From contig MEMB01000004.1 in NCBI GenBank assembly GCA_001768735.1, positions 10,168 through 74,167 on the forward strand: a DNA stretch of 64,000 nt, given 5' to 3'. Every line of letters starts with the position of its first letter. The first letter of the stretch is position 1. The notes beneath the pieces were generated by a model. That model was not told where the DNA came from and did not search any database. It saw nothing but the letters and a program-made list of their open reading frames with translations. Origin of the DNA: Alphaproteobacteria bacterium GWF2_58_20. GTDB lineage: Bacteria > Pseudomonadota > Alphaproteobacteria > UBA1247. The position numbers were made by a program, and so were the translations under genes. Below, piece after piece: positions 1,783 to 42,178 of this stretch.

Positions 1783-1947
1783 TAGAGCATTTAACGTTTA
1801 GATTGAACAATGCCTGTTGATCTTGGGATGAGCCAGACCGCAAGGCGCAAACCGCAGGGCGATGCGGGCATCGTCCAAGGTTTGAAAACACGGCGGATGG
1901 CCATCAAAAGGCAACAGGGGGATTCAAGATGAACGTTAAATGCTCTA
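1783..1947. mobile_element. Putative MITE / palindromic repeat element, 165 bp including TA at both ends
   Basis: Perfect 16-bp terminal inverted repeat TAGAGCATTTAACGTT...AACGTTAAATGCTCTA, extending to 25 bp with 3 mismatches; internal hairpin GGGCGATG-CGGG-CATCGTCC; no transposase. Confidence 0.75.
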
Positions 1948-5536: not shown

Positions 5537-6099
5537 GGCTGCCTCCTGCGCAGAAAAAACACAGCGGCCGCGCCATATCGCCGCCGGTCAAGCCGTTCCC
5601 AGCCCTGCCCCACATCCAGATCCTCGCGGGCAGCCACTTCCGCCACCACCACCGCATCCGGTGCCAGCCATCCCGCCTTTTCAAGCGCGGCAAGGGCAGG
5701 CGGAATGAGTCCGGAAAGATAAGGCGGATCAAGGAACACCAGGCCACAGGCTTCAGGCGCCGCCGGAAGCTGCGGAACGGTGGAAGGGAAAAGACGCGCC
5801 CGGACTTCCTCATGCAAAAGGGAAACATTGCCCTTGCAGGCAGCCAGCGCCTGCGGGGCGCTGTCAATGAAAAAAGCCTTTTCAGCCCCGCGGGAAAGGG
5901 CTTCAAGCCCCAGTGCCCCTGTGCCACAGAACACATCGGCCACCACCGCTCCCAAAACCAGATTGCCCTCAGGCAGCCAGCCATGGTTTTCCAGGATATT
6001 GAACACCGCCTGCCGCGCACGATCGGACGTCGGGCGCACATCCATGCCGGAAGGCGCGCACAGGCTACGCCCGCGATGACGTCCGGCGACAATCCTCAT
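5533..6099 (-). CDS. rsmD: 16S rRNA m2G966 methyltransferase
   Basis: MRIVAG..RGR, RPTSDRAR, FCGTGALGLEALSRGA, FLDPPY. Confidence 0.95.
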   Translation of the reverse strand: MRIVAGRHRGRSLCAPSGMDVRPTSDRARQAVFNILENHGWLPEGNLVLGAVVADVFCGTGALGLEALSRGAEKAFFIDSAPQALAACKGNVSLLHEEVRARLFPSTVPQLPAAPEACGLVFLDPPYLSGLIPPALAALEKAGWLAPDAVVVAEVAAREDLDVGQGWERLDRRRYGAAAVFFLRRRQP

Positions 6100-6836
6100 G
6101 GAGCTTTATCCCCCATCTGCTCCCGCACCACGCGACGCGGCACTTCCTCAACATGGCCCCGCGTCAGATTGCCCAACTGAAACGGTCCATAGGATGTACG
6201 GATAAGCCGTCCCACCTTGAGCCCCACACTTTCCAGCAGACGGCGCACTTCGCGATTTTTGCCTTCGGTAATAGCGATGGATACCCAGACATTATCGCCC
6301 TGCTCGCGCTCCAGCGTGGCCTTGATAGGACCATAAACAACCTTGTCCACAATGCAGCCATCCGCCAGGGTGTCCAGCCGGGCCTGGGTCACCCGGCCAA
6401 AGGCGCGCGCACGGTAATGGCGCACCCAGCCGGTTGAGGGGAGTTCCATCTTGCGGGCCAGCTCCCCGTCATTGGTGAGAAGGATGAGCCCCTCGGAGCT
6501 GAGATCAAGCCGCCCAATGCTGATGGTGCGCGGAAAATCGGGCGGCAAGAGGTCGAAAATCGTTGGACGCCCCATTTCATCCCGTGCCGTGGTCACAAAA
6601 CCGGCGGGCTTGTGGAAGCGCCACAGGCGGGTGGGTTCAACATCGGGAATGGCCTTGCCATCCACCGTGATGAAGTCGGCCGGCATGACCAGCGTTCCGG
6701 GTTCCACAATCACGCGGCCCCCAACGGAGATGCGCCCTTCGGCGATCATTTTCTCGGCGTCGCGACGCGAGCACACTCCGGCGCGCGACAACCTCTTGGC
6801 GATACGTTCGCCTTTTTTGCTTTCAGACGGGTTCAT
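6096..6836 (-). CDS. rluB: S4-domain rRNA pseudouridine synthase (RluB/RsuA family)
   Basis: ERIAKRLSRAGVCSRRDAE, GRLDLSSEGLILLTNDG, EGKNREVRR; start set at ATG 6836 after AGGGGG. Confidence 0.88.
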   Translation of the reverse strand: MNPSESKKGERIAKRLSRAGVCSRRDAEKMIAEGRISVGGRVIVEPGTLVMPADFITVDGKAIPDVEPTRLWRFHKPAGFVTTARDEMGRPTIFDLLPPDFPRTISIGRLDLSSEGLILLTNDGELARKMELPSTGWVRHYRARAFGRVTQARLDTLADGCIVDKVVYGPIKATLEREQGDNVWVSIAITEGKNREVRRLLESVGLKVGRLIRTSYGPFQLGNLTRGHVEEVPRRVVREQMGDKAP

Positions 6837-6932
6837 GCCCCCTGTATAGAGCAAAACATGGCCAAGGGGAATCCCTTCTGACAGTGACAAGGAGGTTTTC
6901 ATCCGGGGCCTTTTGGGTTTATAAGGAACGGC

Positions 6933-13294: not shown

Positions 13295-14188
13295 TCATCC
13301 GCCTACATTTCCAGCCAGAAATGCGAAAAAAACCAGAAGGCCGAACACGACATTCGCCTTAAACCGGGACAGCGCAGACGCCGGAGAGGCCAGATCCCAT
13401 GTCAAAACCTGCCATGCCGCATGGGCAAAAGCGGGCAAAAGGGCCAGCAGGACGATGGGGGAAAATCCTACGGCCGCCACCAGAAAGAACCCGCACAGGA
13501 CAAAAACAACAGAAACAAAGGCGCGGACATGTCCTTCAAACCGCAGGGCGGTGGATTTGAGCCCCAGCCGGCTATCCCCTTCACGATCCTGCCAGGCATA
13601 AATGGTATCATAAGCCAGGGTCCAGCAGATCCCGGCAACATAAAGCCACAGGACGGGAAGATCCAGCCGGCCCCGGACGGCGGCCCATCCCATGGGGGCC
13701 CCCCAGTTGAAGGCCAGCCCCAGCACCAGCTGCGGCCAGAATGTCACCCGCTTCATGAGCGGATACACCAGCACAACAGGCAGGGACAGGAAGCCCAGCA
13801 GGAGGACAAGGCGGTTCATCTGGAGCAGGACAAGCAGCCCCCCCAGCATGAGCAGGGCGCAAAATCCCAACGCTGCGGGCACACCCACCCGTCCAGAGGC
13901 CAAAGGACGCTGGGCTGTCCTTTCCACCTTGCGGTCAATGTCGCGATCCAGAATGTCGTTGATGACACAGCCCGCCCCCCGCATGAGGAAAGCCCCAACC
14001 GTAAAAAGGAAATAAAGCCGCCATGCATGCAGGCCTCCACCTGCAAGGGCCACGCCCCAAAAGCAGGGAAGCAGAAGAAGCCAGGCTCCCACCGGGCGGT
14101 CAACCCGGGCGAGATACAGGAACGGGCGCACGGCGGCAGGAAATTTTTCCGGCCAGCGGGCGGTCATGTCGGTATGCATGCTTGTCAT
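13295..14188 (-). CDS. ubiA: 4-hydroxybenzoate polyprenyltransferase
   Basis: GCVINDILDRDIDRKVERT, YPLMKR, YDTIYAWQD. Confidence 0.95.
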   Translation of the reverse strand: MTSMHTDMTARWPEKFPAAVRPFLYLARVDRPVGAWLLLLPCFWGVALAGGGLHAWRLYFLFTVGAFLMRGAGCVINDILDRDIDRKVERTAQRPLASGRVGVPAALGFCALLMLGGLLVLLQMNRLVLLLGFLSLPVVLVYPLMKRVTFWPQLVLGLAFNWGAPMGWAAVRGRLDLPVLWLYVAGICWTLAYDTIYAWQDREGDSRLGLKSTALRFEGHVRAFVSVVFVLCGFFLVAAVGFSPIVLLALLPAFAHAAWQVLTWDLASPASALSRFKANVVFGLLVFFAFLAGNVGG

Positions 14189-14219
14189 CGGGCTTCTTCA
14201 TAATTATAGCTGTGGGAAA

Positions 14220-14993
14220 ATGCAACGCGGAGGACATGAATTGATCCGTCTTTTTGTCGAAGATCCCCTTTCCCAAGGCTTCCTGCTGGGCCTTGACGCA
14301 ACGCGCGCCCACTATCTCATCCATGTCATGCGCATGAATATTGGCGATTCGCTGCTGGTGTTCAACGGTCGCGATGGCGAATGGCACGCCGAGGTGGAAG
14401 GAACCGGAAAAGGCTGGTGCAGCCTGAAGATTGGCGACAAGACCCGCGACCGGGGATACCCTTCGGATCTCTGGCTGCTCATGGCCGCCATCAAGAAACC
14501 ACGCATGGCCATCGCCGTGGAAAAAGCCACCGAGCTGGGCGCCGGACTCATCTGGCCTGTCATCACCCGCCACACCGTCATGGCGAACGTCAATTCCGAA
14601 AAACTGTCCCTTACCGCCATCGAGGCTGCCGAACAATGCGAACGTCTCGACGTTCCCGATGTCCGTCCCCCCACGGCCCTCATGGACATCTTGTCAAAAT
14701 GGCCCGAAGGCCGCAGCCTGGTGGTGTGCGCCGAAACCGGCAACGCCCGCCCCGCCATGGACGTGTTTTCCGGCTGGGCACGGGAACCCGCGCACCCCAC
14801 GGCGATCCTCGTGGGGCCGGAAGGCGGTTTTGCCAAGGAAGAGCTGGAATACTTGGCGTCCCTGCCCTTTGTGCATTTCATCGGCCTCGGCCCGCGCATC
14901 CTGCGCGCCGAAACTGCCGCCATCACTGCCCTTTCGCTGTGGCAGGCCACCTGCGGCGATTTCGGCTTGCCGCCCCGGGGCGAGCCTGACTGA
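14220..14993 (+). CDS. rsmE: 16S rRNA m3U1498 methyltransferase
   Basis: HYLIHVMR, EKATELG, EAAEQCER, VGPEGGF, LGPRILRAETA; start approximate. Confidence 0.93.
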   Translation: MQRGGHELIRLFVEDPLSQGFLLGLDATRAHYLIHVMRMNIGDSLLVFNGRDGEWHAEVEGTGKGWCSLKIGDKTRDRGYPSDLWLLMAAIKKPRMAIAVEKATELGAGLIWPVITRHTVMANVNSEKLSLTAIEAAEQCERLDVPDVRPPTALMDILSKWPEGRSLVVCAETGNARPAMDVFSGWAREPAHPTAILVGPEGGFAKEELEYLASLPFVHFIGLGPRILRAETAAITALSLWQATCGDFGLPPRGEPD

Positions 14994-14999
14994 ACATTT

Positions 15000-16961
15000 T
15001 CAGGGCTTGATGGCGCAGGTATGCCATGTGCCGTTGGACAGCTGGGTTACGCCGCTGTCCATGCCAAGCACCATGGTGGGCACCGAGCGGTTTTCATAAT
15101 TGCCCAACCCCAGCGCCCCCGTCGTTTCCCCTCGTCCCCAGCAATAAAGGGTTGTATCCTTGATGGCGCAATTGTGGTGGTCGCCCGCCGACACCGCCGT
15201 TACGCCGCTGTCCATGTCCACCACCGGAACCGGCGATGTCCGGTTGATGATCGTGCCATCGCCAAGCAGGCCATACTGGTTGTAGCCCCAGCAGTACAGC
15301 GCGCCAGACTTGATGGCGCAGCCGTTCAGGAGACCTGTCGAGATCGACGTCACCCCGCTCCCCATATTGAGCACCGCCACCGGCACATGGCTGTCCGATG
15401 TACCACCATTTCCGAGCGCCCCGCCGTAACCGCGGCCCCAGCAATAAGCCGCGCCCGACCGAACGGCACAGGTATCTTGTATTCCAACCATCACTGCCGT
15501 TACACCACTGTCCATGCCCACCACTGGGGTCGGCGTGGAACGGTTAATGAGTGAATTGTCTCCCAGCTTGCCGAAGCTGTTTTCTCCCCAGCAATACAGC
15601 GCCCCCGACTTGATGGCACAGGAATGGTAATATCCAATGGAAAGCACCGACACCCCGCCCCCGGCAAGGTCTCCCTGCACCTCAACCGGAAGGAGGCTGT
15701 TAATATTGGTACCATCCCCCAGCTGGCCATAAGCGTTTCCGCCCCAGCAATACAGAACCCCGGACTTGATCGCACATGTATGCGTAAACCCTGCATTCAC
15801 AGCCGTCACGTCACTGTCCATGTCCACAACGGATACTGGTGGAATACTGTCCGTTGTGGCATTGTTGCCCAGCTGCCCTTGGTGATTGCGGCCCCAGCAC
15901 GAAACCGCCCCGTTTTTCAGGGCACAGGTATGGTCATATCCGCCTGCGGCCAGGTCCACCCCAAGCCCCATGGCGGACACCGCCACAGCAACGGTATTGT
16001 TGTCGCCATATACATGCCCCACTTTGCCATAAGCAAAATGTCCCCAGCAGTAAAGGTCACTGGGACCAAACCCGTTTGCAGAGCCTGACAGGCCGGCAGA
16101 CACCTCTCCGCCCGCATCGGCAGATACCGTCAGCATTCCCGTGTAAGACCCCACATCCGCATCTGCCGTTGGCTGAACCTCAATAACGCAGGAACCGCCC
16201 CCTGCCAGAGGTGCCGTACATCCATTTGACGCCATGGAAAAATGCGTTCCCGACAGGTTGATGGTCAAATCCGTTGTGGTTTCACAGCCATCGCAGTTGC
16301 GCACCGTAAACGGAACCACATCCCCATACAGCACAAGGCCGACCGACATTCCCGCTGCGGCAATGTCCATCCCGGCTGCGCTGGCGGGATCCATGGAAAG
16401 GACGGCCACCGGCAACCCACCGCCACCTGCAAACCCGCTCGCCACGCCCGCAACCGCCATGGACGCGGTCCCGGCCGTGGTTGCGCTGACGCGCAGTGTG
16501 CCGTCATAGCTGCCATTCCGGTCGGCACGGGGATAAAGAACAATATCGCAGGTAGCCGCCGCATCCAGCGATGCAGCGCAGGTGGTCAGAACCAGATCTG
16601 TCACAAAATTGGCGCCCGCATCGTTTTCAACCTGGAAGACAATGCTTCCAGACGCCACCGTTCCCGTATTTGTCACCTCAAAGGTAACGGAGCTTCCGTC
16701 TGTCCAGACACCATCAGCAGCTCCCAGACCGTTGACATCCATGGCCAGGGGATCGCTGCCACCGGCACTGATGGCAAGGGTTGCAGCCCCTTCCTCATCT
16801 TCATTGTGGGATGCCACCCAATGGGAACAGGAGGCATCATCCATCATGTTGCAGATGTTTTTCCGGATGCGGTACTTTTGCTGTGCAAGCCCCTCCGCCC
16901 CGGCACCGACGGAAACCAGTGCAACCATACCAAAAACCAGCAGCCATTTCATGCAACGCAT
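15000..16961 (-). CDS. Secreted protein: signal peptide, two Cys-containing Ig-like (ASH-like) domains and a C-terminal RCC1/BLIP-II-like beta-propeller
   Basis: ATG 16961 with GGAGG 5 nt upstream; MKWLLVFGMVALVSVGAGA leader; VTFEVTNTG..TC..TC and VPFTVRNC..GC..SC units; seven CWG.N..G.LG...HTCAIK repeats. Confidence 0.85.
   Translation of the reverse strand: MRCMKWLLVFGMVALVSVGAGAEGLAQQKYRIRKNICNMMDDASCSHWVASHNEDEEGAATLAISAGGSDPLAMDVNGLGAADGVWTDGSSVTFEVTNTGTVASGSIVFQVENDAGANFVTDLVLTTCAASLDAAATCDIVLYPRADRNGSYDGTLRVSATTAGTASMAVAGVASGFAGGGGLPVAVLSMDPASAAGMDIAAAGMSVGLVLYGDVVPFTVRNCDGCETTTDLTINLSGTHFSMASNGCTAPLAGGGSCVIEVQPTADADVGSYTGMLTVSADAGGEVSAGLSGSANGFGPSDLYCWGHFAYGKVGHVYGDNNTVAVAVSAMGLGVDLAAGGYDHTCALKNGAVSCWGRNHQGQLGNNATTDSIPPVSVVDMDSDVTAVNAGFTHTCAIKSGVLYCWGGNAYGQLGDGTNINSLLPVEVQGDLAGGGVSVLSIGYYHSCAIKSGALYCWGENSFGKLGDNSLINRSTPTPVVGMDSGVTAVMVGIQDTCAVRSGAAYCWGRGYGGALGNGGTSDSHVPVAVLNMGSGVTSISTGLLNGCAIKSGALYCWGYNQYGLLGDGTIINRTSPVPVVDMDSGVTAVSAGDHHNCAIKDTTLYCWGRGETTGALGLGNYENRSVPTMVLGMDSGVTQLSNGTWHTCAIKP
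15003..16060 (-). repeat. Seven imperfect ~150-bp coding tandem repeats (RCC1 blades)
   Basis: CTTGATGGCGCA-like motif recurs near 15005, 15159, 15307, 15457, 15607, 15763 and 15912. Confidence 0.85.
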
Positions 16962-17141
16962 CCGATCCTCCAGCCCATACCCTTCCCGGCAACCAAAACC
17001 GGAACAAAACCATGATAAGATAAACAAACGAATTATAATATAAAAAAAGAGGGGCACGCTTTCCAGCCTCCTTGCAGGATCCTCTTCCCACCCCGTTGTC
17101 CATACTTGCGCACGGCTTGCAAATCCTCTACATACGCCCCC

Positions 17142-18413
17142 ATGGAAAACCGGGATATCAATATTACCACTCTGGCCAATGGCATGCGCGTTGTCACCGA
17201 CCGCACGCCGTGGGTTGAAACTGCTTCTGTCGGCATCTGGGTTGGCGCGGGCGCGCGCGACGAGGAGAAGGGGGCCAGCGGCATCGCCCATTTCCTTGAA
17301 CACATGGCCTTCAAGGGCACCACCACCCGTTCAGCCCGGGACATCGCCCACGAGATCGAGGCGGTGGGTGGCCACCTCAACGCCTATACCTCGCGCGAAA
17401 GCACAGCCTATTACGCCCGCATCCTGAAAGAGCATGTTCCGCTGGCCATGGACATCCTGTCCGACATCCTGCGCAACTCCACCTTTGCCGAAGAGGAACT
17501 GGCCAAGGAACGGACGGTGGTGCTGCAGGAAATCGGCATGACCGAGGACACACCGGACGATATCGTGTTTGACCTGTTTCAGGAAACCGCCTATCCCGAC
17601 CAGCGTCTGGGACGACCGGTTCTGGGCACGACAGAATCCGTTTCCCGCCTCACCCGTGACGACCTCACCGGTTTCATCCGCCAGCATTACCATCCCGGCC
17701 GCATGGTGGTTTCCGCCACCGGGAACCTCCGGCACGAAGACATCTGCGCACTGGCGGAAAAGCATTTCGGCGACCTGCCCGCCGGTGATCCCGTCCCCGC
17801 CCATGAACCCGCTTGCTACAAAGGCGGCGACCTGCGCCAGGTGCGTGACCTCGAACAGGTACATGTCGTCCTCGGTTTCCGCGGCATCAGCGCCCACGAC
17901 CCCGATTATTATGCCATGGCGGTTTTCGGTACCCTGCTGGGAGGCGGCATGTCCTCGCGCCTGTTTCAGGAGATGCGGGAAAAGCGCGGCCTTGTCTATT
18001 CCATCCACAGTTTTTCAGCCTCTTTCCGCGACGACGGGCTTTTTGGCATCTACGCCGGTTGCACCCCCAGCCACGTTCCGGAAGTGCTGCCCGTCATCTG
18101 CGCCGAACTGGTGGCCGTTTCCAGCCAGGTAACAGATGCGGAAATCGCTTCTGCCAAAGCACAGATCAAGGCCGCCTTCCTGATGGCCCTGGAAAGCACA
18201 TCCTCCCGCTGCGAACAGCTGGGGCAGCAGATGCTGGTGTTCGGACGGCCTGTCCCCCTCACCGAAACCCTTGCGCGGATTGATGCGGTGGACAAGGACA
18301 AGATCCACGCCCTGGTGGCGCGCCTGCTGCAAAGCACGCCTACCCTCACCGCCATCGGCGATGTCTCGCACCTTGAAGCCTACGAGAACGTGCGCAAGCA
18401 ACTCGCGCTTTAA
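17142..18413 (+). CDS. M16B peptidase, copy 1 (canonical, MPP/RPP-like)
   Basis: GIAHFLEHMAFKGT, LNAYTS, ERTVVLQE, LGGGMSSRLFQEMREKRGLVY. Confidence 0.95.
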   Translation: MENRDINITTLANGMRVVTDRTPWVETASVGIWVGAGARDEEKGASGIAHFLEHMAFKGTTTRSARDIAHEIEAVGGHLNAYTSRESTAYYARILKEHVPLAMDILSDILRNSTFAEEELAKERTVVLQEIGMTEDTPDDIVFDLFQETAYPDQRLGRPVLGTTESVSRLTRDDLTGFIRQHYHPGRMVVSATGNLRHEDICALAEKHFGDLPAGDPVPAHEPACYKGGDLRQVRDLEQVHVVLGFRGISAHDPDYYAMAVFGTLLGGGMSSRLFQEMREKRGLVYSIHSFSASFRDDGLFGIYAGCTPSHVPEVLPVICAELVAVSSQVTDAEIASAKAQIKAAFLMALESTSSRCEQLGQQMLVFGRPVPLTETLARIDAVDKDKIHALVARLLQSTPTLTAIGDVSHLEAYENVRKQLAL

Positions 18414-18538
18414 AAACAAGAAGAACAAGAAGCCTCCGCAAAAATGCCGGGTGGCCATGCGGTTTTTGCATACCTTGTGCGCAAACCCGCATGTTACGTT
18501 TCGGAATCCCGACCGTTCCCCAAACAAAGGATCGCAAC

Positions 18539-19873
18539 ATGACAAACGCCAAAGCCCCGCAGGTGACAACCCTCCCCAACGGCCTCAGGATCGTTGTGGA
18601 CGAAAGGCCGGGAAGCGGTTTTGTCAACATGGGCCTCTACCTCATGTATGGCAACATGGATGATCCGCAGGGGCTTGAAGGACTTTCCTGCATGGTGGGC
18701 GACATGCTGATGTGGGGCTCGCCCAGCTACAGCCGCAAGAACATCCTGGATTTTTGCAAAAACGGCAACGAAATCTTCGTTGTCACGGAGACGGAACATA
18801 CCCACTTCATGGCCACGGTCTTTCCGGAAAATCTCGAAAACGCCCTTTCCATTTTCACCAGCGTCATCCAGAACCCGCTCCTTCTGCAGGAAAGCCTGGC
18901 CTATGAAAAGCACATGGCCATGCAAAACATCAAACGCAGCCGGGAAAATCCGAAAGCCGTCCTGGCTGGCCTGCTGAAAGCCATTGCCTTCAAGGATCAG
19001 TCCGTCGGCCGCACCGCCAGCGAGGAAAGCATCAGCCGCATTACGCGTGAACATCTTGCAGCGCAGCTTGAGGCGTTTTACGTTCCCTCCGCCATGGTCC
19101 TGGCCATCTCCGGCGATAAGGACAAGGAATCAGCCATTGCCCTGGCCACGAAGACCCTGGGCACGCTCCCAACCAAGGCGGCACCCGTCCGCACCGCCCC
19201 CATCTTTGTCGGCGGAGACAGCCGCCTTGCACAGGACCGCAGCCAGACGGGCATCCGCCTGGCCTTCCCCTCCCCCGGCATCAACGACAGCGACCGCCAT
19301 GCGGCCATCATGCTGGGCCAGATCCTGGGCGGCAGCATGGACTCCCGCCTGTTCCTGGAAGTCCGGGAAAAGCGCGGCCTGGTTTATGGCATTTCCGCCA
19401 GCAACCTCGCCATGCAGCACGGCGGCCTGTTTGTGGTAGCCGCAGGCACCGGCGACGACGCCAAGGCGGAAAGCAAAAACATCGAGACCATGATTCCCGT
19501 CATCTGCCACGAACTTCTCGACACCACCCGCAACATCACCCCGGAAGAACTGCAACGAGCCCAAAACAGCATCCGGATGAGTTTCGCGCAAGCCAATTGT
19601 TCCTCCGCGAGCATGTGCGCCTTCATGGGGACGACAACCCTGCTTGCGGGCCAGCCTCGCGAACGCTCGGAATCCCTGCGCATTTACCAGACGGTAACCC
19701 CGGAGGACATCAATCGGGTGGCCCAGCGCATTTTCTCCGCCAAGCCTGCCTTTGCCGCCGTCGGCCCACTCGAAGGCCTTCCATCCTATGAGGAAATCCT
19801 GCGCCTGATGCAAAAGGAACCCCAAAAGAAAACCCCGGACAGCCCGGCCCCTTCCATGGCCCCCCGTTCCTGA
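18539..19873 (+). CDS. M16B paralog, copy 2, zinc site lost (alpha-subunit-like)
   Basis: HxxEH replaced by CMVGD; distal ligand position MQN instead of LQE; LGGSMDSRLFLEVREKRGLVY retained; ATG 18539 after AAAGGA. Confidence 0.9.
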   Translation: MTNAKAPQVTTLPNGLRIVVDERPGSGFVNMGLYLMYGNMDDPQGLEGLSCMVGDMLMWGSPSYSRKNILDFCKNGNEIFVVTETEHTHFMATVFPENLENALSIFTSVIQNPLLLQESLAYEKHMAMQNIKRSRENPKAVLAGLLKAIAFKDQSVGRTASEESISRITREHLAAQLEAFYVPSAMVLAISGDKDKESAIALATKTLGTLPTKAAPVRTAPIFVGGDSRLAQDRSQTGIRLAFPSPGINDSDRHAAIMLGQILGGSMDSRLFLEVREKRGLVYGISASNLAMQHGGLFVVAAGTGDDAKAESKNIETMIPVICHELLDTTRNITPEELQRAQNSIRMSFAQANCSSASMCAFMGTTTLLAGQPRERSESLRIYQTVTPEDINRVAQRIFSAKPAFAAVGPLEGLPSYEEILRLMQKEPQKKTPDSPAPSMAPRS

Positions 19874-19905
19874 TCCCGCACAGCCATTCCCGAGGAATTC
19901 CCATC

Positions 19906-21212
19906 ATGACAAAATCCACACCCTTCAAGACCGCCACCCTGAAAAACGGCTTCCGCATCGTGGTGGACGAGCGCCCGGGCATCGGGTTCGTGAAAACCGG
20001 CATCTGGGTCAAGTGCGGTTCCGTCGACGAGCACCGCTCCATCGCCGGGATCTCCCATTTCATCGAACACATGGTGTTCAAGGGAACGGAAAACTTCTCG
20101 CAGGCCAACATCAAGGAAATCGAGAAGCAGGGCGGGGAGTCCAACGCCTACACCTCCTATGACATGACGGCCTACCATGCCACGGTGTTTCCGGAGCATT
20201 TCGCAAAGACCCTTGACCTGATTTCCGACATGGTGCTGTTCCCGACCCTCGCCCACGACATCGACCAGGAACGCGGCGCCGTGCTGCAGGAAATCAAGGA
20301 ATACGCCGACAAGAGCAGCAGCGTCCTTATCAACGCCATGATCAGGAATAGCTTCCGTGACCAGGCCATCAGCTGGCCCATCCTTGGCACACAGGAAACG
20401 GTGTCGGCATGACATCCTCGACCCTCATCGCCTACCACGCCGCCCATTACACGCCAAACAACATGGTTCTGGCCGTTTCCGGCGACGTCACGTTTGAAGA
20501 GGTGATGGCCCTCGCCACAAGGAAACTGGAAGATGTTCCGGCTTTCGAGCAACGCCCCCGGCCGGTTTTCCGGCATACCGGCGGAGAAACCGTCCACCTC
20601 CCCTACAGCGGGGAAGACATGAAGGGCTGGATCTGTTTTCCCGGCATCTCCAGGAATGACCCGGATCACGCGGCCGTCAACATCATGAGCCATATCCTCA
20701 ACCACCGGTTCAATGATGAAATCCAGGAAAACCGGAAAATCGCCTGCAGCACAACCGTTGGACACATGAACCACGCCGATGCCGATGGTTTCGTTGCCGG
20801 CACTTTTGGATCCCCGGAAACCATCGCGCAGGCCCTGCCCGTCCTCTTCCAGGAAATCCGGAACATCCAGAAAAGTGTCCGGCCTGAGGAAATTGCCCTG
20901 GCCCGGGACAGCCTGCGCATGGAATTTGTCCAGGGACTCGAAAAACCGGAGGACATGTGCATGGCCATCGGCAGCCACATGATTGTGTCCGGCACCATGT
21001 TTGACCCACAGGCCGAACTGAGGGCCAGCGCCAAGGTGACCGCACAGGATGTCCAGCGGGTGGCGCGCCGCATCTTCTCCGGCCTGCCCAGCATGACCTT
21101 CATGGGCGCGACCCTGCCCCTGCCCACCCCGCAGGAAATCCGCGCCATGGTGCGCACGCATCCCCAAAATCCCTGCGCCCTGCCTGCCCCCGGCCTCCGC
21201 CCCTGCATGTAA
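19906..21212 (+). pseudogene. M16B paralog, copy 3, split by a 1-nt frameshift into 19906-20412 and 20409-21212 (pseudogene, split gene or sequencing error)
   Basis: HFIEH, SNAYTS and VLQE are intact in part 1; ...GTQETVSA* followed by MTSSTLIAYH aligns without a gap to copy 1 GTTESVSRLTRDDLTGFI. Confidence 0.8.
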
Positions 21213-21234
21213 CCCCCGCCAAGGATACAGGAAC

Positions 21235-22569
21235 ATGACAACGCAGCCCAAGACCCTCACCCTTCCCAACGGCCTCACCATCGTGGTGGACGAACGCCCG
21301 GACGCCGGACGCGTCACCTGCGCCATCGGCATCCGCAGCGGCAGCGATCATGAACCCGCGGAACTCTGCGGCATTTCCCACTTGATTGAACACATGGTTT
21401 TCAAGGGATCCGCCAAATACACCCGGCAGGAGATTGCCGCCATCGAGGATCTTGGCGGAGATACCGGAGCCTCGACCTGCGGGGATTGCACCCTTTACTC
21501 AAGCAACTGCTTCCCGGAAGATTTCCCCCATGTTTTCGACATCCTGTCCGACATGGTCTTGCACCCCACATTTCCCGAGAATGAATTCTCCAAGGAACGC
21601 AAGGTTATCCTGGGAGAAATCGGGGAAAGCGAGGACGATCCGGACGACACAGCCACCGTCCTGACCCTCCGGCACATTTTCCAGGATTCCCCTGCGGGGA
21701 GGCCCACCCTCGGTTTCCGGAAAACCCTTAGAAAAATGACTCCGGACATTCTCAGGGCCTACCATGCCAGCCACTACACGGCCAGCAACATGGTGGTTTC
21801 TGTCTGTGGCAACATCACCGTGGAAAACGTCAGAAACCTTGTCCAAAACAAAATGCAAAACCTGCCGGCAGGACAGGAGAACACCTGCCCGCCTCCCAGC
21901 TATACCCCCGTCGATGTCCGGATCAATGCCAAATTGAGCCAGACGCAAATCCGTCTGGCTTTTCCGGGAATCCGGAAAACCGATCCGGATTATCCCGCAG
22001 CCATCACGCTACAGAACATCCTGAGTGGCGGAATTTCCTCCCGCCTGCATGAATGCGTACGCGAACGGAACGGACTCGCCTATTCCATTGCTTGCTCGCA
22101 CGAGCTCATTGCCGGCGAAGGCGTCTTCATGGTCTTCACTTCCACCGGTATTGGCCAGGCCGGCGCCATGACCGAAACCCTTTGCAAAGCCCTCGTTGAG
22201 GCAACCCGGACCGTCTCACAGGGAGAAATCCGCAAAACGGTCGCGAGCATCCGCATGGGACTTGTCATGGAAATGGAGGGCATGGGTGGCCTGGATACAT
22301 GCCATGCAGAGGACGTCCTTGCCAAACGCCACCTCGGCACATCCATGGATACCCTGGAAAAATACAAGACCGTGACACCGGAAGACGTGATGCGGGTAGC
22401 CAAGCGGATTTTCTCTGCCAAGCCATCGCTCGTGGCCTACGGCCCCCTCAAGGGCCTTCCCGGCATGCCGGAGATCGAAGAGATGCTGCGGGGCAAAGCG
22501 CCAAAACCGCAGGCCGCGCGCAAAAAGCGCCCGCCGGCCCCGGCGCCCAAGCCGCCCGGAACCCCCTGA
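21235..22569 (+). CDS. M16B paralog, copy 4
   Basis: GISHLIEHMVFKGS, ERKVILGE, LSGGISSRLHECVRERNGLAY; Pro/Lys-rich tail. Confidence 0.92.
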   Translation: MTTQPKTLTLPNGLTIVVDERPDAGRVTCAIGIRSGSDHEPAELCGISHLIEHMVFKGSAKYTRQEIAAIEDLGGDTGASTCGDCTLYSSNCFPEDFPHVFDILSDMVLHPTFPENEFSKERKVILGEIGESEDDPDDTATVLTLRHIFQDSPAGRPTLGFRKTLRKMTPDILRAYHASHYTASNMVVSVCGNITVENVRNLVQNKMQNLPAGQENTCPPPSYTPVDVRINAKLSQTQIRLAFPGIRKTDPDYPAAITLQNILSGGISSRLHECVRERNGLAYSIACSHELIAGEGVFMVFTSTGIGQAGAMTETLCKALVEATRTVSQGEIRKTVASIRMGLVMEMEGMGGLDTCHAEDVLAKRHLGTSMDTLEKYKTVTPEDVMRVAKRIFSAKPSLVAYGPLKGLPGMPEIEEMLRGKAPKPQAARKKRPPAPAPKPPGTP

Positions 22570-22586
22570 GCCGCACACAAAACGCG

Positions 22587-22615
22587 AAAACGCCCGCAGC
22601 GATGCGGGCGTTTTT
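22587..22615. terminator. Bidirectional intrinsic terminator
   Basis: AAAA-CGCCCGCA-GCGA-TGCGGGCG-TTTTT between convergent genes. Confidence 0.8.
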
Positions 22616-22668
22616 CATGAAAAGCTTGGCAAGATGTTCTGGCAGGACCCCGAAGGCCCCAAAAAGCG

Positions 22669-23244
22669 TCAGGCGTGCCCGGATTCCGCCGACAGGGACG
22701 GCAGGTCAATCCCCATCTTCTGCAGTGCCCTTTCCCACTTGATGGCCACTTCCACATCAAAAATGAGTTCCGGCGAAGCGGGCGCGCTGATCCATGAATT
22801 GGCCTGCATTTCCTCCTCGAGCTGGCCCGGGGTCCAACCTGCATACCCCAGCAGCAGCATATGCTTCCTGGGCCCCTCCCCCTTGGCAATGGCCTGCAGG
22901 ATGTCCAGCGTGCCTGTCAGGGCAATGCCGTCCTCAATCACCATGCTGCCTTCCTGGAGAAAATCGGTTGTATGCAAGACAAAACCGCGACCGGCTTCCA
23001 TCGGGCCGCCGAAATGCACCTTTTGGTCTTCCTTCGGTTGAATCGTCTTGATTCCCACCTGGTCCAGAAGATCCGAAAACATGACCGACCCAAAAATCCG
23101 GTTGATGACAAGACCCATGGCTCCATGTTCATTATGGGAACAGATGTAAATGACCGAGCGGATAAAGCGCGGATCCACCATGGCAGGCATGGCCAGGAGA
23201 ACATGCCCTTTAAGGTATTGCTTCTCGAGTGTGTTCTGGCCCAT
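22669..23244 (-). CDS. YqgE/AlgH family protein
   Basis: LLAMPAMVDPRF, GAMGLVIN, FGGPME, LGYAGWTPGQLEEE, SGHA; ATG 23244 after GGAGGA. Confidence 0.93.
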   Translation of the reverse strand: MGQNTLEKQYLKGHVLLAMPAMVDPRFIRSVIYICSHNEHGAMGLVINRIFGSVMFSDLLDQVGIKTIQPKEDQKVHFGGPMEAGRGFVLHTTDFLQEGSMVIEDGIALTGTLDILQAIAKGEGPRKHMLLLGYAGWTPGQLEEEMQANSWISAPASPELIFDVEVAIKWERALQKMGIDLPSLSAESGHA

Positions 23245-23280
23245 TATTCCTCCCCGATGAAACCATTGTAAGTCATTCTG

Positions 23281-25263
23281 ATGAAAAAAGCTATCCTCAC
23301 TCTCGCCCTGATTGTTTCTTTTCAAACGGCACGCGCGGAAATTGCATCCTCATGGCAAACGGACGGCGCGCTTTCCGCACGCCTTTTGTCCTCGGAAACC
23401 GCCACCGGAACTCTGCCGGAAATTGGGGCAGGGCTTGAAATTTCCCTTCAGGAGGGCACCAAGCTTTACTGGCGCAGCCCCGGCGATGCGGGCATTGCGC
23501 CTACCTTTGACTGGACAGGTTCCGAAAACCTGAAAAACACCGAAATCCACTGGCCGGCGCCTGTCCGCCATTCTGAATTCGGATTTGAAAGCCATGTGTA
23601 TGAAGGGCATGTCCTGCTGCCCATCAGCCTGGTTCCGGAAACCGCCGGGAAGCCACTCCGGGCCACCCTGGAACTGGAAGCCCTGCTCTGCAGCGAACTC
23701 TGCACCCCCACCCACCTGAACCTGAATCTGGAAATTCCTGCCGGAACTGCCGGCCTCACCCCGGATGCCAACCGCCTGGCCGAAGCCATCGCCAGCCTGC
23801 CCGCCCCGGAAGGCCCGGAAACCGGCACCATCCGCGAGGCAACCTTTGCAGACGGCATTCTTTCCGTGACCGTTGCAACGCCCTCCCCCCTTTCCCATCC
23901 GGATATTTTCGTGGAAACGGATGCCGTTGCCTCCTTTGATGCCCCACAGGTGGAAACCCGTGCGGACGGACGAACCACCACCTTCCACCTGCGCATGCGG
24001 CCTTCGGCCATTGCGCCGGAAACCCTGGTCGGCCTTGCCATGACCTTTACCATGACCGGTGGCGCAAGGGCCCTGGAAACAACGGCCATCGTCACGCCGC
24101 CCACCCTTGCGCGTCCTGCCGAAAGTGCCCCGGCTATCCCTGAGACATCCGCCCTGGCCACAAGGCAGGAAAATGCCGTTCCCAGCCCGGCCATGACAGG
24201 GCCGACTCTCGCAGCCAAACAGGCCCTCCCGACACTTTCAGCCGCCACCATCATCCTCATGGCCCTTCTGGGCGGACTGATCCTGAATGTCATGCCCTGC
24301 GTCCTGCCCATCCTCTCGCTCAAGCTGCTTGCCGTCCTGCGTCACGGCGGCGCAGAGCGTCGGGCCATCCGCACGGGTTTCCTTGCTTCGTCTGCGGGAA
24401 TCCTCACCTTTTTTGCAGGCCTTGCGGGGATGGTCATCCTGCTGAGATCCATGGGCATTTCCGTAGGCTGGGGCTTCCATTTCCAGCAACCGGCCTTCAT
24501 CGCCTTCCTCATGCTGCTCATGCTGGTCTTCGCGGCCAACATGGCCGGGCTTTTTGAAATTCCCGTACCGGCACGCCTTGTCCGTTCCGGTGGCGGCCAT
24601 TTCCTGGAAGGGCTGCTGGCCGCCGTCATGGCCACCCCCTGTTCGGCTCCCTTCCTGGGCGTCACCGTTGGTTACGCGCTTTCGCGGGGGCCCACGGAAA
24701 TCCTCATGGTTTTCATGGCTTTGGGCTTCGGCCTTGCTGCGCCCTTCCTTCTGGTGGCGCTTGTCCCTGGTCTGGTGAAAACCCTGCCAAAACCCGGCGC
24801 ATGGATGGTTCACCTCAAGCGGGGCCTGGCTTTGGCCCTGGTTGCCACCGCCCTCTGGCTTGGCAGCGTTCTGGCTGGACAGCTGCTTCCTGCACCGGAA
24901 CAGGCGGGGGCATCCCTGTGGCGCCCCTTTGCCCCAGAAACCATTCCCTCCGCCCTCGCAGACGGAAAAACCGTCCTGGTTTCGGCCACCGCCGACTGGT
25001 GCCTCACCTGCAAGGCCAACGAAGCCCTGGTTTATGAAAATGAAAAAATCCGCAAGGCGCTTTCCGCCCCACAGATCGTGGCCATGCGCGCCAACTGGAC
25101 CCGCCGGGATGAAGCCGTGGCCACTTTCATGGCCAGCCATGGACGCCGCGGCGTCCCCTTCACCATTGTTTTTTCAGGAAAACATCCACAAGGCCAGGTT
25201 TTGCCGGAAATCCTCACACCGGACACCCTGGCCGATGCCCTGGCCATTCCTCACCTGCCCTGA
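23281..25263 (+). CDS. Protein-disulfide reductase, DsbD/ScsB family
   Basis: [39 protein letters not shown]. Confidence 0.92.
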
Positions 25264-25691
25264 CGTGGAACCGCCGCGCGCGCGAGGACATCGACCCGCT
25301 CGTTCTCCGGATGGCCGGCATGCCCCTCCACCCAGATCCATTCCACGTCATGCGCGGCCATGGCGGTATCAAGCGCCTGCCACAAATCCTGATTCTTCAC
25401 CGGCTTGCGGTCCGAGGTTTTCCAACCATTGCGCTTCCAGCCGTGCATCCACCGCATCACGCCATCCCGAACATAGCGGCTGTCGGTGTGCAGGCGCACC
25501 CGACAGGGCCGCTTGAGGGCCGACAAGGCTTCAATCGCCGCCATCAGTTCCATCCGGTTGTTGGTGGTTTCCCTTTCGCCACCGGAAATTTCGCGTTCCA
25601 CACCGCCATAACGCAGCAACGCTCCCCAGCCTCCAGGGCCAGGATTCCCGCTGCATGCACCGTCGGTGAATATCTCCACATCCTTGCTCAT
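25251..25691 (-). CDS. rnhA: Ribonuclease HI
   Basis: [47 protein letters not shown]. Confidence 0.97.
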
Positions 25692-25771
25692 GACATTTTC
25701 TCTACAGGAAACCCTTGCAGCATGGCAAAGCTTTTTCTACTATCCGCCGTCTTTTACTCCATGAGGTTTTC

Positions 25772-26290
25772 ATGCGCATCCTGCTCCCCCTGTCCTTCGC
25801 CCTGCTTCTGGCCGCCTGCCAGTCCGCCCCAATCCCGGCGCCCAAAGCCTGCCCGCGCATTGCTTTCGTGCCGGATGCGGAAACCGTTTTCCATTACCTG
25901 CCCGGCCGTTCAGGCGAGGATGAAGCCCTTGTTTCCCGTGCCGCGCTCGCCAACTACGGCGGCCAGTGCAGCCAGACGGAAGATGGCAAGATCGATGTGG
26001 AGATGTTCCTTGCCATCGCCGCCCAACCAGGCCCGGCCCTGGCGGGAAAGGAAGAGGGATACGATTATTTCGTGGCCGTCCTCGCGCCCGACGGAACGCC
26101 CCTGGCCAAAAAGGTCTTCCACCGCAGCATCCTTTTTGAAAAAAACGCCAAGGACAATACAACGTGGGTCGAAGAAAACCTGCACCAGCGCATTCCCCTT
26201 GCCTCCTGCGGTGATGGCGGCGCCTGCCAGATTGTCATTGGCTTCCAGCTCACTCCGGACGAACTCACCTTCAACCGCACACGGAAATGA
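25772..26290 (+). CDS. Putative lipoprotein
   Basis: MRILLPLSFALLLAAC lipobox; ACPRI and IGFQLT motifs as in conserved alphaproteobacterial lipoproteins. Confidence 0.75.
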   Translation: MRILLPLSFALLLAACQSAPIPAPKACPRIAFVPDAETVFHYLPGRSGEDEALVSRAALANYGGQCSQTEDGKIDVEMFLAIAAQPGPALAGKEEGYDYFVAVLAPDGTPLAKKVFHRSILFEKNAKDNTTWVEENLHQRIPLASCGDGGACQIVIGFQLTPDELTFNRTRK

Positions 26291-27666
26291 CAAAAACCTC
26301 CCTTTCCCGCGATAGTGTTTTTTACGCCCTGCTGGCGCTTGTCTTCATGGCCCCCCTGCCCTTTGGCGGCATCCTGCCTTCGGCATGGCTCCCCATGGCC
26401 ATGGCGTCCGGCCTGCTTCTGGCAGCCTTCGCCCTGACCCGGCTGAAGGCCGGTGAAACGCCCCCCGTCTCCCTCCGCGCCTGGCGCATTCCCCTTGGCC
26501 TGCTGGCCCTCGCCATGGCCTGGGGATTCCTGCAAACCCTGCCCGCATTTTCCCCCGGAATGGCCCATCCGGCATGGCAAATGGCCTCCGAGGCCACAGG
26601 GGTTCCCCTGACGGGACGCATTTCCATCAATCCTGGTGCGGGCCGCGACATCCTGCTGCGCTGGATGGCCAATCTTGCCGTTTTCTGGCTGGCCCTCAAT
26701 TATGGCCGGAAATCCGGCAACACCCGCGCCTTCCTGCGCACCTTCCTGCTGAGCGCCACAGCATGCGCCGTCTATGGCCTCTGGGTGGAAGGCAATGGCA
26801 GCGCCATGGTTCTGGGCATTGCCAAAATCCAATACAAGGAAAGCCTGACCGGAATCTTCATCAACAAAAACCATGCGGCAACCTTCCTTGGCCTTGGCAT
26901 CCTTTGCGGCCTTTCCCTGCTGGCCTCCACACTGGCATCCATCCCATCCACCCTTGGCCGCCGCGAAAAAATCCACATGATCGGACATGCCCTCTCTGGA
27001 TGGAATGCCCTGCCCGCCGCTTGCCTGGCCCTGCTTGTCCCCGCCCTGTTCCTGACCGATTCCCGGGCCGGTGTCGCCCTGACCCTCCTGGCATCGCTGT
27101 TCCTCATCGTGGCCGCACGCCTGACCAAGAGCATCAGCCGCACCACTTTTCTCATGCTTCTTGGACTGGCCCTGCTGCCCGTTCTTGGCTTCCTGCTTCT
27201 GGGCAACCATACCAACCTGGCCCAACGTTTTGGCTTTTTCGGACAGGACTGGGCCATCCGCATGAACATTTATGAAATCACCCTCCAGGCCCTCGGCCAT
27301 ACGCCTTTTGCCGGAACAGGCCTCGGTACCTTCCCGGACATCTTCCGCATGTACCATAACGGCCTCATGGACGGAGCCGTCACCCAGGCCCACAACACCT
27401 ATCTCGAACTTGCGCTTGAACTGGGAATTCCGGCCACCCTTCTCCTGCTGGCCGCCGGTGCCTGGCCCCTTGCCATTTGCGCCTGCGGCATGGCTGTCCG
27501 GCAGAAAAACCGGATCCTGCCCGCCACCGGCATGGCTCTGGCCTTGCTCGCCGGCCTGCATTCCGCCTTGGATTTCAGCCTGCAGATGCCCGGCCTGGCC
27601 CTGGCCTTCTGGGCGCTGATGGGTGCCTGCACGGCACAAGGCTGGAGCATGAGAAAGAGCATTTGA
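26287..27666 (+). CDS. O-antigen ligase (WaaL/Wzy_C) family membrane protein
   Basis: Many TM helices; FINKNH, SRAG, GTGLGTF, QAHNTYLE, LHSALDF. Confidence 0.88.
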   Translation: MTKTSLSRDSVFYALLALVFMAPLPFGGILPSAWLPMAMASGLLLAAFALTRLKAGETPPVSLRAWRIPLGLLALAMAWGFLQTLPAFSPGMAHPAWQMASEATGVPLTGRISINPGAGRDILLRWMANLAVFWLALNYGRKSGNTRAFLRTFLLSATACAVYGLWVEGNGSAMVLGIAKIQYKESLTGIFINKNHAATFLGLGILCGLSLLASTLASIPSTLGRREKIHMIGHALSGWNALPAACLALLVPALFLTDSRAGVALTLLASLFLIVAARLTKSISRTTFLMLLGLALLPVLGFLLLGNHTNLAQRFGFFGQDWAIRMNIYEITLQALGHTPFAGTGLGTFPDIFRMYHNGLMDGAVTQAHNTYLELALELGIPATLLLLAAGAWPLAICACGMAVRQKNRILPATGMALALLAGLHSALDFSLQMPGLALAFWALMGACTAQGWSMRKSI

Positions 27667-38171: not shown

Positions 38172-38208
38172 AAGAAACCCCTATGTTATCTATCAGGACA
38201 TGAGGGGG

Positions 38209-41484: not shown

Positions 41485-42178
41485 CGGGCCTCGCCGCATC
41501 ATCCTTGTCGATGATGACCGCAATATCCTCGCTTCGGTATCCATCGCCCTTGAAACCGAAGGATTCTCGGTGGAGTCCTTTACCGATGGCGAACAAGGCC
41601 TGCGCGCCATCCTTGCACATCCCCCCGGCCTGGTGGTGCTGGACATCAAAATGCCCCGCATGGATGGCATGGAAGTTCTCACCCGGCTGCGCCGGACCTC
41701 CCAGATCCCCGTCATTTTCCTGACGTCAAAGGATGATGAAAGCGACCAGATTGAAGGCCTGCGCATGGGGGCAGACGACTACATTACGAAACCCTTTTCC
41801 GTCAATTTGCTGATCCAGCGCATCCTGACCATCCTGAGACGACAGCAGATCCGCGGAAACCCTGTGGCAGACAGCAAAACCATCCAGCGCGGCCCCCTGA
41901 CCATGGACGCCAACCGGCAGACCTGTTCCTGGAAAGACAAGGACGTGGATCTTACCGTGACCGAATTCCTGCTGGTCTGGCTGCTGGCCGAATACCCCGG
42001 ACATGTCAAGACCCGCAACCAGATGATGGACGCGGCCTATGGCGAAAACCTCTATGTCGATGACCGCACCATCGACAGCCACATCAAACGCATCCGCAAG
42101 AAATTCCGCGATCTTGACCCGGATTTTTCCCACATAGAAACCCTTTACGGGGCAGGATACCGCTTTGTGGAACCCTGA
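41468..42178 (+). CDS. chvI: Response regulator ChvI
   Basis: [40 protein letters not shown]; GTG start (ATG 41459 is the alternative). Confidence 0.92.

Follow-up and report, generated by a model that had tools for sequence, protein, structure and literature searches.

Pairs of active and inactive M16 subunits are the textbook route to the mitochondrial processing peptidase (MPP), and a run of four M16B genes in an alphaproteobacterial genome raises the question of whether such a pair is encoded among them and what its origin might be. The window analysed here, a stretch of 64,000 nucleotides of contig MEMB01000004.1 from Alphaproteobacteria bacterium GWF2_58_20, carries on the chromosome four M16B zinc-peptidase genes that make up one operon and differ in their histories, of which there are two. 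The four genes adjoin one another on the + strand at 17142-22569, as an earlier note on this DNA had described, and are 26-42% identical among themselves, far above chance. Both PF00675 and PF05193 are found above cut-off in copies 1, 2 and 4, and in copy 3 they are spread over two ORFs. No further M16 gene was identified in the genome (94.6% completeness), whose 4 PF00675 and 4 PF05193 matches all fall within the array. The intergenic gaps measure 32 nt between copies 2 and 3 and 22 nt between copies 3 and 4, with AGGA ahead of each start. Upstream of copy 1, at 17012..17039 on the + strand, lies a sigma-70-like promoter match (ATGATA-16-TATAAT, 10/12), a consensus match only, and weak because 2 were found against 1.8 expected in shuffles. 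A GC-rich 12-bp hairpin (22587..22614, listed on the - strand), palindromic and flanked by an A-run and a T-run, sits between copy 4 and a convergent AlgH-like gene and is probably a two-way terminator. None of the RNA runs searched for this stretch contains it. All four proteins are taken to be cytoplasmic, since none possesses an obvious N-terminal hydrophobic signal-like stretch.

Copy 1 (17142..18413, + strand, 423 aa) is a complete M16B peptidase (PF00675, 5.7e-48; PF05193, 4e-50), and its alignment displays HFLEH, NAYTS, E..E, GGGMSS and the R/Y pair. It matches 20 canonical singles, which carry the full motif set in 20/20, with phmmer E values of 1e-154 to 1e-120, and is nested in their clade with a support of 92/95 and ~55% identity. 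Its best PDB matches are BHP (3hdi, 4.8e-94) and then beta-MPP (3e-91). By its placement in the tree, copy 1 is the orthologue of the alphaproteobacterial single MPP-like or RPP-type gene, and the only copy belonging to that clade. The earlier note took one such gene to be the norm in this class, and this stands: of 400 genomes searched at E<=1e-40, 323 others gave a match, and 7 of those hold more than one. Because every catalytic element is present, copy 1 would act as a homodimer in the manner of BHP.

Copy 2 (18539..19873, + strand, 444 aa) is of the inactive type. Its start at 18539 is favoured by an orthologue over an alternative ATG at 18491. The zinc site reads CMVGD, N takes the place of the distal E and a degenerate FVVTE forms the substrate strand, while GGSMDS and the R/Y pair in REKRGLVY are retained; copy 2 is regarded as an inactive homologue because HXXEH and the distal Glu are missing. 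The orthologue, P0002, is an intact ORF of 444 aa with 84% identity (80% in domain D1, 86% in domain D2) and identical losses. These losses are maintained, being conserved in a second organism at that identity, and in all sequences of the copy 2 type (4/4) both HxxEH and the distal E are missing, whilst the R/Y pair is present. The best PDB match is likewise 3hdi. Relatives of copies 3 and 4 at ~80% beside P0002 were not listed, in a search that was weak, as it left this genome's own copy 4 unlisted and missed P0425.

Copy 3 had been described as one gene copy, with its frameshift overlooked, and consists here of two ORFs in different frames joined by an ATGA stop/start overlap. The N piece (19906..20412, + strand, 168 aa; PF00675 only, 6.8e-35) comprises the catalytic domain D1 with HFIEH, NAYTS and E..E. 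It terminates in ETVSA followed by TGA and shares 60% identity with P0425, an intact orthologue that reads through as ETVSAM at the corresponding position. The C piece (20409..21212, + strand, 267 aa; PF05193 only, 9.7e-27) comprises domain D2 and a Pro-rich tail, with a five-residue deletion in the Gly loop and Q/C in place of R/Y; P0121, an identical 267-aa protein, is recorded on 3 contigs. The break itself (20405..20412, + strand) is a 1-nt deletion at 20407/20408 relative to an intact allele, and leaves the TGA of the N piece overlying the ATG of the C piece. No residues are lost, and only the inter-domain peptide bond is interrupted, exactly at the domain boundary. The intact allele, in which a C inserted after 20407 restores a single frame, rests on one 309-nt contig of run X6 (3 mismatches, depth 2) from a near-identical strain in another study. 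X1, the source run as assembled by Logan (depth 13.2), also carries the deletion allele, as does X4 on a 263-nt contig with 0 differences; the window and X4 are two samples of one study, so that fixation is not implied. In all sequences of the copy 3 type (4/4), HxxEH and E..E are present, the five-residue loop deletion is shared and R/Y is missing. Their identities in D1 and D2 are 60/41, 52/32 and 46/25%, compared with 59/52% for the singles, and a higher conservation of D1 than of D2 fits the roles suggested below for these domains.

Copy 4 (21235..22569, + strand, 444 aa) is an M16B protein of the complete type with a Pro/Lys-rich tail. It contains HLIEH, E..E and R/Y, and its substrate strand is GASTC. 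In the tree it pairs with P0241 (96/87; 41-44% identity), which has all motifs, and it would most likely form a separate homodimer of different specificity. For each of the four copies, alignment reproduces the motifs called in the earlier note, namely the full set in copy 1, CMVGD, E to N, GGSMDS and R/Y in copy 2, HFIEH, NAYT and the distal E with the loop deletion and R/Y to Q/C in copy 3, and both sets with NAYT changed to GAST in copy 4.

The complementary, alpha/beta-like loss that had been seen in copies 2 and 3 is upheld and follows the pattern of 18/18 canonical pairs. Copy 3 possesses the zinc site but Q/C instead of R/Y, copy 2 possesses R/Y but no zinc site, and this reciprocal distribution is that of heterodimeric bacterial M16B enzymes. 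Amongst 18 canonical alphaproteobacterial pairs, all active subunits (18/18) are without R, with Y surviving in 1, and all inactive subunits (18/18) keep R/Y. Fusions of two units show the reciprocal split in 132/138 (104 + 28), among 148 top matches classified. A canonical pair is present in 24/40 relatives from the class, in contrast to this genome, which has no M16 gene outside the array. Two metagenomic proteins, P0361 (887 aa) and P0362 (900 aa), fuse a unit of the copy 2 type to a following unit of the copy 3 type, in the order of the array, and their halves sit in the copy 2 (100/99) and copy 3 (100/99) clades with congruent internal branching. The longest contig of each has the same length, 8937, which hints that the two may lie on one contig. 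The predicted structure of P0361 (pLDDT 87.0, pTM 0.86) shows disorder only in the linker 427-453, and superposes over its full length on closed four-domain M16 structures (9ldy_A, TMq 0.77; IDE, 0.70-0.76).

A heterodimer of copies 2 and 3 is well supported because their reciprocal pattern matches the canonical pairs and fusions and because P0361 and P0362 join both unit types; the two are most likely halves of one enzyme, which would pair physically. They would form a clam shell with a single composite active site, to which the copy 3 N domain would contribute HFIEH...E and the copy 2 C domain, facing it across the chamber, the completing R/Y pair; the opposite half-site is dead on both sides. 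In the review PMC12731061, R/Y in D4 completes the site that HXXEH forms in D1, and this would be the site used by the pair. In other organisms the two units constitute one chain of ~890 aa, with the Pro-rich tail of the copy 2 unit as a linker. Here, because the 1-nt deletion cuts copy 3 into two ORFs, either the enzyme would be built from three chains, with translation restarting at the preserved Met codon, or it has been lost very recently; we infer that the split form still functions. The combined reading, with copy 1 as a standard enzyme, copies 2 and 3 as one heterodimer (copy 3 being split in this strain) and copy 4 as a separate homodimer, is moderately probable.

Other arrangements of the same genes have to be considered. 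The pair may be non-functional in this strain, because the window, the source-run Logan assembly and another sample from the study all carry the frameshift in copy 3; copy 3 would then be a fresh pseudogene and the enzyme dead, with copy 2 decaying or partnering copy 4 or copy 1. A slippery heptamer was looked for before the stop and none was found, which makes programmed frameshifting unlikely, and the C half of copy 3 diverges faster from P0425 than the N half (41% versus 60%). On the other hand, the lesion is the sole one in 435 codons and lies exactly within the inter-domain linker, ATGA is recreated on a pre-existing Met codon with AGGA 12 nt 5' of it, GC3 is normal in both pieces, and both deletion samples come from one study, so that a pseudogene, although possible, is doubtful. 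Copy 4 or copy 1 could just as well lend its zinc site to copy 2. Copy 2 might also be a pseudoenzyme that serves otherwise than in proteolysis, for instance as a scaffold, a chaperone-like binder or a regulator, and stays unpaired with copy 3, as all four of its zinc/catalytic residues and its substrate strand are gone, and M16B-like pairs with other roles are named families, of which the YfmF/YfmH models matched far below cut-offs. The strict retention of R/Y and the REKRGLVY block in 4/4 sequences of the type, which catalysis with a partner needs, and the covalent fusion of such units to units of the copy 3 type make this improbable. The preferred reading is still that copies 2 and 3 work as a pair.

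As to origin, the trees place copies 2-4, as three old types of paralogue, in a separate clade that is thinly sampled and marked by Pro-rich C-terminal tails. Each has orthologues in other metagenomic organisms (clade supports of 100/99, 100/99 and 96/87), and so the description of the pair as lineage-specific is not supported. Nor is the proposal that copies 2-4 arose within this lineage by tandem duplication beside a parent gene, copy 1. The genes are indeed adjacent on one strand, and the best matches of all four belong to the MPP-like group rather than to the canonical pairs; however, copy 1 sits among the canonical singles (92/95), copies 2-4 are no closer to it (30-31%) than to each other (31-33%), and orthologues of all three exist elsewhere. 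Duplication from copy 1 is accordingly a very remote prospect. A constraint uniting copy 1 with copies 2-4 costs 75.7 lnL and is rejected by the AU test (p-AU 0.00018), barring long-branch artefacts. These trees took in canonical singles, bacterial pairs and fusion units, and no MPP sequences.

Copies 2 and 3 may instead share descent with the canonical pairs of the SPH2681/SPH2682 type, copy 4 having regained or kept the full motifs. Uniting the copy 2 type with canonical inactive subunits costs 12.5 lnL (AU p 0.187), and uniting the copy 3 type with canonical active subunits costs 11.2 lnL (AU p 0.123), and the AU test rejects neither; the trees have long deep branches, and the composition of many rows is deviant. 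Against this, ML trees unite the three types (97/95 in the careful tree, 94 in a 63-row quick tree) and place them inside the MPP-like superclade (99), apart from the canonical inactive subunits and aiC units (99). The Pro-rich tail and a VTPEDVxRVAxxIFSxKP block are common to the three types. The array runs from inactive to active, as opposed to active to inactive in 17/18 canonical pairs. Canonical inactive subunits mostly have an extra loop residue, which 3/4 sequences of the copy 2 type are without (P0362_N has an insertion of its own), and the loop deletion of the copy 3 type is not found in canonical active subunits. Common descent with the canonical pairs is somewhat unlikely. An independent origin is favoured by the trees and not secured (AU p 0.12-0.19). 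The fuller proposal, that in this clade an alpha/beta-type M16B heterodimer evolved independently from a homodimeric, MPP-like ancestor, an origin not described before, the same enzyme being kept as one chain (P0361, P0362), two (the intact allele, P0425-type) and three working chains (here), is offered tentatively. If true, it would provide a ready-made series of duplication, reciprocal loss, fusion and fission for testing the evolution of the M16 clam shell, MPP alpha/beta included.

The locus adds a further active/inactive pair, probably independent, among the close bacterial sequence relatives of beta-MPP. An ancestral-like complete copy 4 and a standard copy 1 share its operon, and fused and split versions of the pair exist in nature, so that four or five cloned genes would allow tests of subfunctionalisation, of the specificity of subunits and of how well domain fission is tolerated. 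As regards annotation, the label "pitrilysin family protein" conceals a distinct clade, copy 2 alone should not carry the name "peptidase", and the two ORFs of copy 3 are parts of a single gene that a one-base deletion has broken.

Amongst known systems, SPH2681/SPH2682 of Sphingomonas sp. A1 and TTHA1264/TTHA1265 of Thermus thermophilus resemble copies 2 and 3 as two adjacent M16B genes for proteins of ~45-50 kDa. According to PMC12731061, such bacterial heterodimers likewise carry HXXEH...E on one subunit and R/Y on the other, and form one composite active site in the clam shell. Unlike them, copies 2 and 3 are placed by ML trees in neither of the canonical subunit clades, are ordered inactive then active, have Pro-rich tails on both and a five-residue Gly-loop deletion in copy 3, share their operon with a complete paralogue (copy 4) and the MPP-like copy 1, and have the active subunit split here. 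The MPP alpha/beta pair is similar in combining a catalytic subunit with a homologous non-catalytic one, which in MPP is required for substrate handling, and by sequence copy 1 and the clade as a whole appear to be the nearest bacterial relatives of beta-MPP. In PMC12731061, alpha-MPP has an extended glycine-rich loop and MPP is without the R/Y pair; by this account copy 2 differs from alpha-MPP in its ordinary short bacterial loop (GGSMDS) and its R/Y (REKRGLVY). BHP (BH2405) is described there as a homodimer with two sites. Copies 1 and 4, like BHP and singles of the Rickettsia RPP type, unite HXXEH...E and R/Y in one chain, although the substrate strand of copy 4 is GASTC, not NAYTS. Finally, P0361 and P0362 are single chains like the four-domain M16 proteins PqqL, FusC and IDE, in which the active half comes first, whereas in P0361, P0362 and 28/138 fusions the inactive half comes first, and the window, unlike PqqL, FusC and IDE, encodes separate chains.

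The earlier note had described four adjacent M16B paralogs. Four copies are present on the forward strand, and copy 3 proved to be divided between two ORFs in different frames. Copy 1 (17142-18413, 423 aa), copy 2 (18491 or 18539-19873, 460 or 444 aa) and copy 4 (21235-22569, 444 aa) each possess the Pfam domains Peptidase_M16 and Peptidase_M16_C. The 168-aa ORF at 19906-20412 (c3N) possesses only Peptidase_M16, and the 267-aa ORF at 20409-21212 (c3C) only Peptidase_M16_C. The intergenic gaps are 125 nt between copies 1 and 2 (from start 18539), 32 nt between copies 2 and 3 and 22 nt between copies 3 and 4, and AGGA-type motifs are found ahead of the starts of copy 2, c3N, c3C and copy 4. Positions 17012-17039 give a promoter-like match, by sequence only, and a two-way hairpin occupies 22587-22614. 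No Rfam match was found in window 14000-26000, and the four-copy stretch was not found in any RNA run.

Alignment reproduced every motif call of the earlier note. Copy 1 contains the zinc motif HFLEH, the substrate strand NAYTS, E..E, the Gly loop GGGMSS and the R/Y pair. Copy 2 has CMVGD at the zinc site, the strand FVVTE and E..N, and retains a Gly loop (GGSMDS) and R/Y. Copy 3 retains HFIEH, NAYTS and E..E; its Gly loop carries a five-residue deletion and its R/Y positions read Q/C. Copy 4 possesses HLIEH, GASTC, E..E, SGGISS and R/Y. No NCBIfam family scored above cut-off for any of the four copies, and an ESM Atlas search with copy 2 returned generic M16 clusters only. Copy 4 is absent from the listing of its own word-based protein search, and copy 2 and c3C are listed in theirs; the gene model of copy 4 may differ in public annotation.

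The two ORFs of copy 3 represent one M16B gene in two frames, since they hold only the first and only the second domain, respectively. The 168-aa ORF ends in GCA TGA, and the ATG of the 267-aa ORF overlaps that stop. Logan contigs of four sequencing runs were compared with window 17000-22700. Across this entire region the window agrees with X1 (depth 13.2), probably the run from which it came, and a 263-nt contig over 20240-20502 from X4, another sample of that study, shows 0 differences. In X6, from another study and habitat, a single 309-nt contig at depth 2 over 20238-20545 has 3 mismatches and an extra C behind 20407, with which the frame continues as ...V S A M T S S.... The break site in P0425, an intact orthologue, has the sequence ETVSAM; together with the X6 contig this indicates that the intact gene is ancestral and that 1 nt has been deleted in the window. 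This costs no residue, as the N piece ends in ...VSA and the C piece opens with a pre-existing Met, and the sole loss is the bond joining domains D1 and D2. Programmed frameshifting was rejected, as a slippery heptamer is absent ahead of the stop. For copy 3 in this strain there are two possibilities: very recent loss, or production as two separate chains, for which termination-reinitiation at the ATGA, with an AGGA 12 nt upstream, could account. X6 and a further run, X7, contain pieces about 99% identical to copies 1, 2, 3 and 4, so that three studies and habitats contain each of the four copies at least in part; neighbouring copies are never bridged by one contig in these two runs.

The genome carrying the window (1.71 Mb, 7 contigs, 94.6% complete) is related to its closest kin among the genomes compared at the level of class at best. 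Its M16 genes are confined to the array, where all 4 PF00675 and 4 PF05193 matches lie. The array is flanked by housekeeping genes (UbiA, RsmE, an RCC1-repeat protein, AlgH-like, DsbD, RNase H, LPS core genes, IleRS, PGI, MutL, AddAB and ThrRS). A horizontal island was considered and rejected because GC is flat at 0.59-0.60, GC3 is native-like and the neighbours are housekeeping genes. The RCC1-repeat protein (15000-16937, reverse strand) is large, lies upstream of copy 1 in divergent orientation and contains at least six RCC1 repeats (PF00415, 1.4e-53; RCC1-like domain, 4.3e-57) and about 270 N-terminal residues that match no Pfam family. Elsewhere in the window, two slightly overlapping DUF547 paralogues lie side by side on the forward strand (37302-38171 and 38128-39051) with a DUF4139 protein upstream, and five long reverse-strand ORFs of 330-796 aa (1945-3459, 26065-27639, 40687-41766, 48219-50609 and 50645-51637) are without a Pfam match at E<=1e-5.

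Copy 1 belongs to the canonical singles, the MPP-like single genes of the class. It matches the MPP-like single gene of 20 other alphaproteobacterial genomes at E 1e-154 to 1e-120 and lies inside the canonical-single clade with support of 92/95 in the careful IQ-TREE tree (52 rows by 460 columns). That one such gene is usual in the class, as had been stated, was borne out by a copy count with the copy 4-type relative P0241 as query (E<=1e-40) in a sample of 401 genomes from this class, among them G040 and G239, which are unpublished. A match is present in 324 of them, and besides the genome with the window, which counts three because the split copy 3 falls out, just 7 have two. No c3-type gene was found in the five of these seven searched with P0425 (best 32%), G014 and G292 lying outside those five. 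In G014 (L019, G014:C1:1489000-1499000), ORFs 3737-5041 and 5614-6888 are tandem divergent MPP-like genes, mutual nearest kin at 100/100, that have a five-residue Gly-loop deletion in common. One is complete (HLIEH, R/Y) and the other possesses neither the zinc site (RLIEH, E>H) nor R/Y (C/S), so that the loss is not reciprocal. Adjacent MPP-like pairs also occur in two more genomes of the class (G384:C27:57268-59824 and G105:C80:90363-92951; L137, L143, L141, L146); they are 20-32% identical to P0425 and not c3-type.

For copies 2, 3 and 4 the matches in the MPP-like group are better than those to the canonical pairs, the bacterial active/inactive M16B heterodimers. The proposal that they are offshoots of copy 1 is contradicted by the careful tree, in which constraining copy 1 with them costs 75.7 lnL (p-AU 0.00018). 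Nor are they lineage-specific, as had been suggested, for each groups with relatives from elsewhere, recovered by a profile search of 1.84 billion representatives. Copy 2 forms one clade with its orthologue P0002 and the N units of the metagenomic fusions P0361 and P0362 (100/99), copy 3 with P0425 and the C units of the same fusions (100/99), and copy 4 with P0241 (96/87). The three clades are united at 97/95, c2-type and c3-type being sister groups (91/71), and all ten sequences have in common a Pro-rich C-terminal tail and a VTPEDVxRVAxxIFSxKP block. Of these relatives, none turned up in GTDB representative genomes, and genome-contig searches with copy 2 and with P0425 gave no close relative. 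A metagenome scan with P0241 returned generic M16B at 30-37% identity only and did not recover P0241's own contig. A word-based search with c3C gave no relative above 31%, a blank that reflects limited sensitivity because the profile search found P0425 and the fusions.

The ten-row clade falls within the MPP-like superclade in the ML trees. As c4-type sequences and outgroups are complete, parsimony places the reciprocal loss within the c2/c3/c4 clade. In the 63-row quick tree, starred branches (99*) set this clade apart from a group made up of canonical inactive subunits and the C units of fusions with active-first order; the N units of these fusions join canonical active subunits at 88 on an unstarred branch. 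A shared origin with the canonical pairs was not rejected by the AU test on the careful tree, either for c2-type with canonical inactive subunits (p 0.187) or for c3-type with canonical active ones (p 0.123), and the trees, from which MPP alpha/beta sequences were left out, contain long branches and uneven composition. On balance, an origin independent of the canonical pairs is fairly probable. The 63-row tree contains further separate splits, namely P0390 and the inactive-first fusion family of P0363 type, so that such splits look recurrent. The two units of P0390 are mutual nearest kin (100*), and in this protein an independent duplication within the chain, with reciprocal loss, seems likely. 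The other is a single-chain M16B family of about 900 aa (P0363-P0384 and others) with an inactive, R/Y-bearing unit first and an active unit second.

Passages of PMC12731061 describe M16B enzymes as either homodimeric (BHP) or heterodimeric (MPP, TTHA1264/1265, SPH2681/2682, AlbF/AlbE). By the same account, HXXEH lies in D1 of one chain, and the site is completed by an R/Y pair that the other half contributes from its C domain, D4. The full motif set is kept in 20 of 20 canonical singles. Among the canonical alphaproteobacterial pairs fetched, R is missing at the R/Y position in 18 of 18 active subunits (Y is kept in one) and R/Y is kept in 18 of 18 inactive ones. The same zinc/RY division is found in all four c2-type and all four c3-type sequences. 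Motif classes were assigned to 148 of the top 150 profile matches, the other two (P0002, P0241) being query members. Two-unit fusions account for 138 of the 148: 104 are Zn+RY- followed by Zn-RY+, 28 have the inverse, inactive-first order, and 6 are Zn+RY+ followed by Zn-RY+. The ten single units comprise nine complete ones and P0425 (Zn+RY-). P0361 and P0362 join c2-type and then c3-type units covalently, an order that matches that of the genes in the window. A model of P0361, built with 26 other inactive-first fusions in its alignment, has a pLDDT of 87.0 and a pTM of 0.86, and its disordered linker corresponds to the Pro-rich tail. Over its full length the model can be superposed on four-domain M16 enzymes in the closed state (9ldy_A, TMq 0.77; IDE, 0.70-0.76), and it fits open PqqL and FusC less well (0.42-0.54). 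Conservation in c3-type sequences is far higher in D1 than in D2, whereas in copy 2 D2 at least equals D1. Copies 2 and 3 thus most likely belong together as a predicted heterodimer.

Copy 1, whose motifs are complete and whose best solved relatives are BHP and beta-MPP, would be a homodimeric general oligopeptidase. Copies 2 and 3 would form a heterodimer with a single composite site from D1 of copy 3 and D2 of copy 2, and copy 4 would be a separate complete enzyme with an altered substrate strand. The canonical pair, present in 24 of 40 sampled relatives, is missing from this genome, and the copy 2/copy 3 enzyme may fill its role.

The four-copy observation is thus partly confirmed, and the interpretation in the earlier note partly supported. 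No NCBIfam model claims the array proteins, and a literature search yielded no account of an array of this kind. Two-gene active/inactive M16B operons are already known, as passages of PMC11266112 and PMC12731061 describe, so that the principle is not new. What is new is a distinct M16B clade with inactive-first gene order, a Gly-loop deletion in the active, c3-type subunit, Pro-rich tails that in fused relatives turn into the linker, a complete paralogue and an MPP-like gene in the same operon, and a catalytic subunit, copy 3, that is naturally and cleanly split. The order of units in the inactive-first fusions of about 900 aa is the reverse of that in PqqL and FusC.
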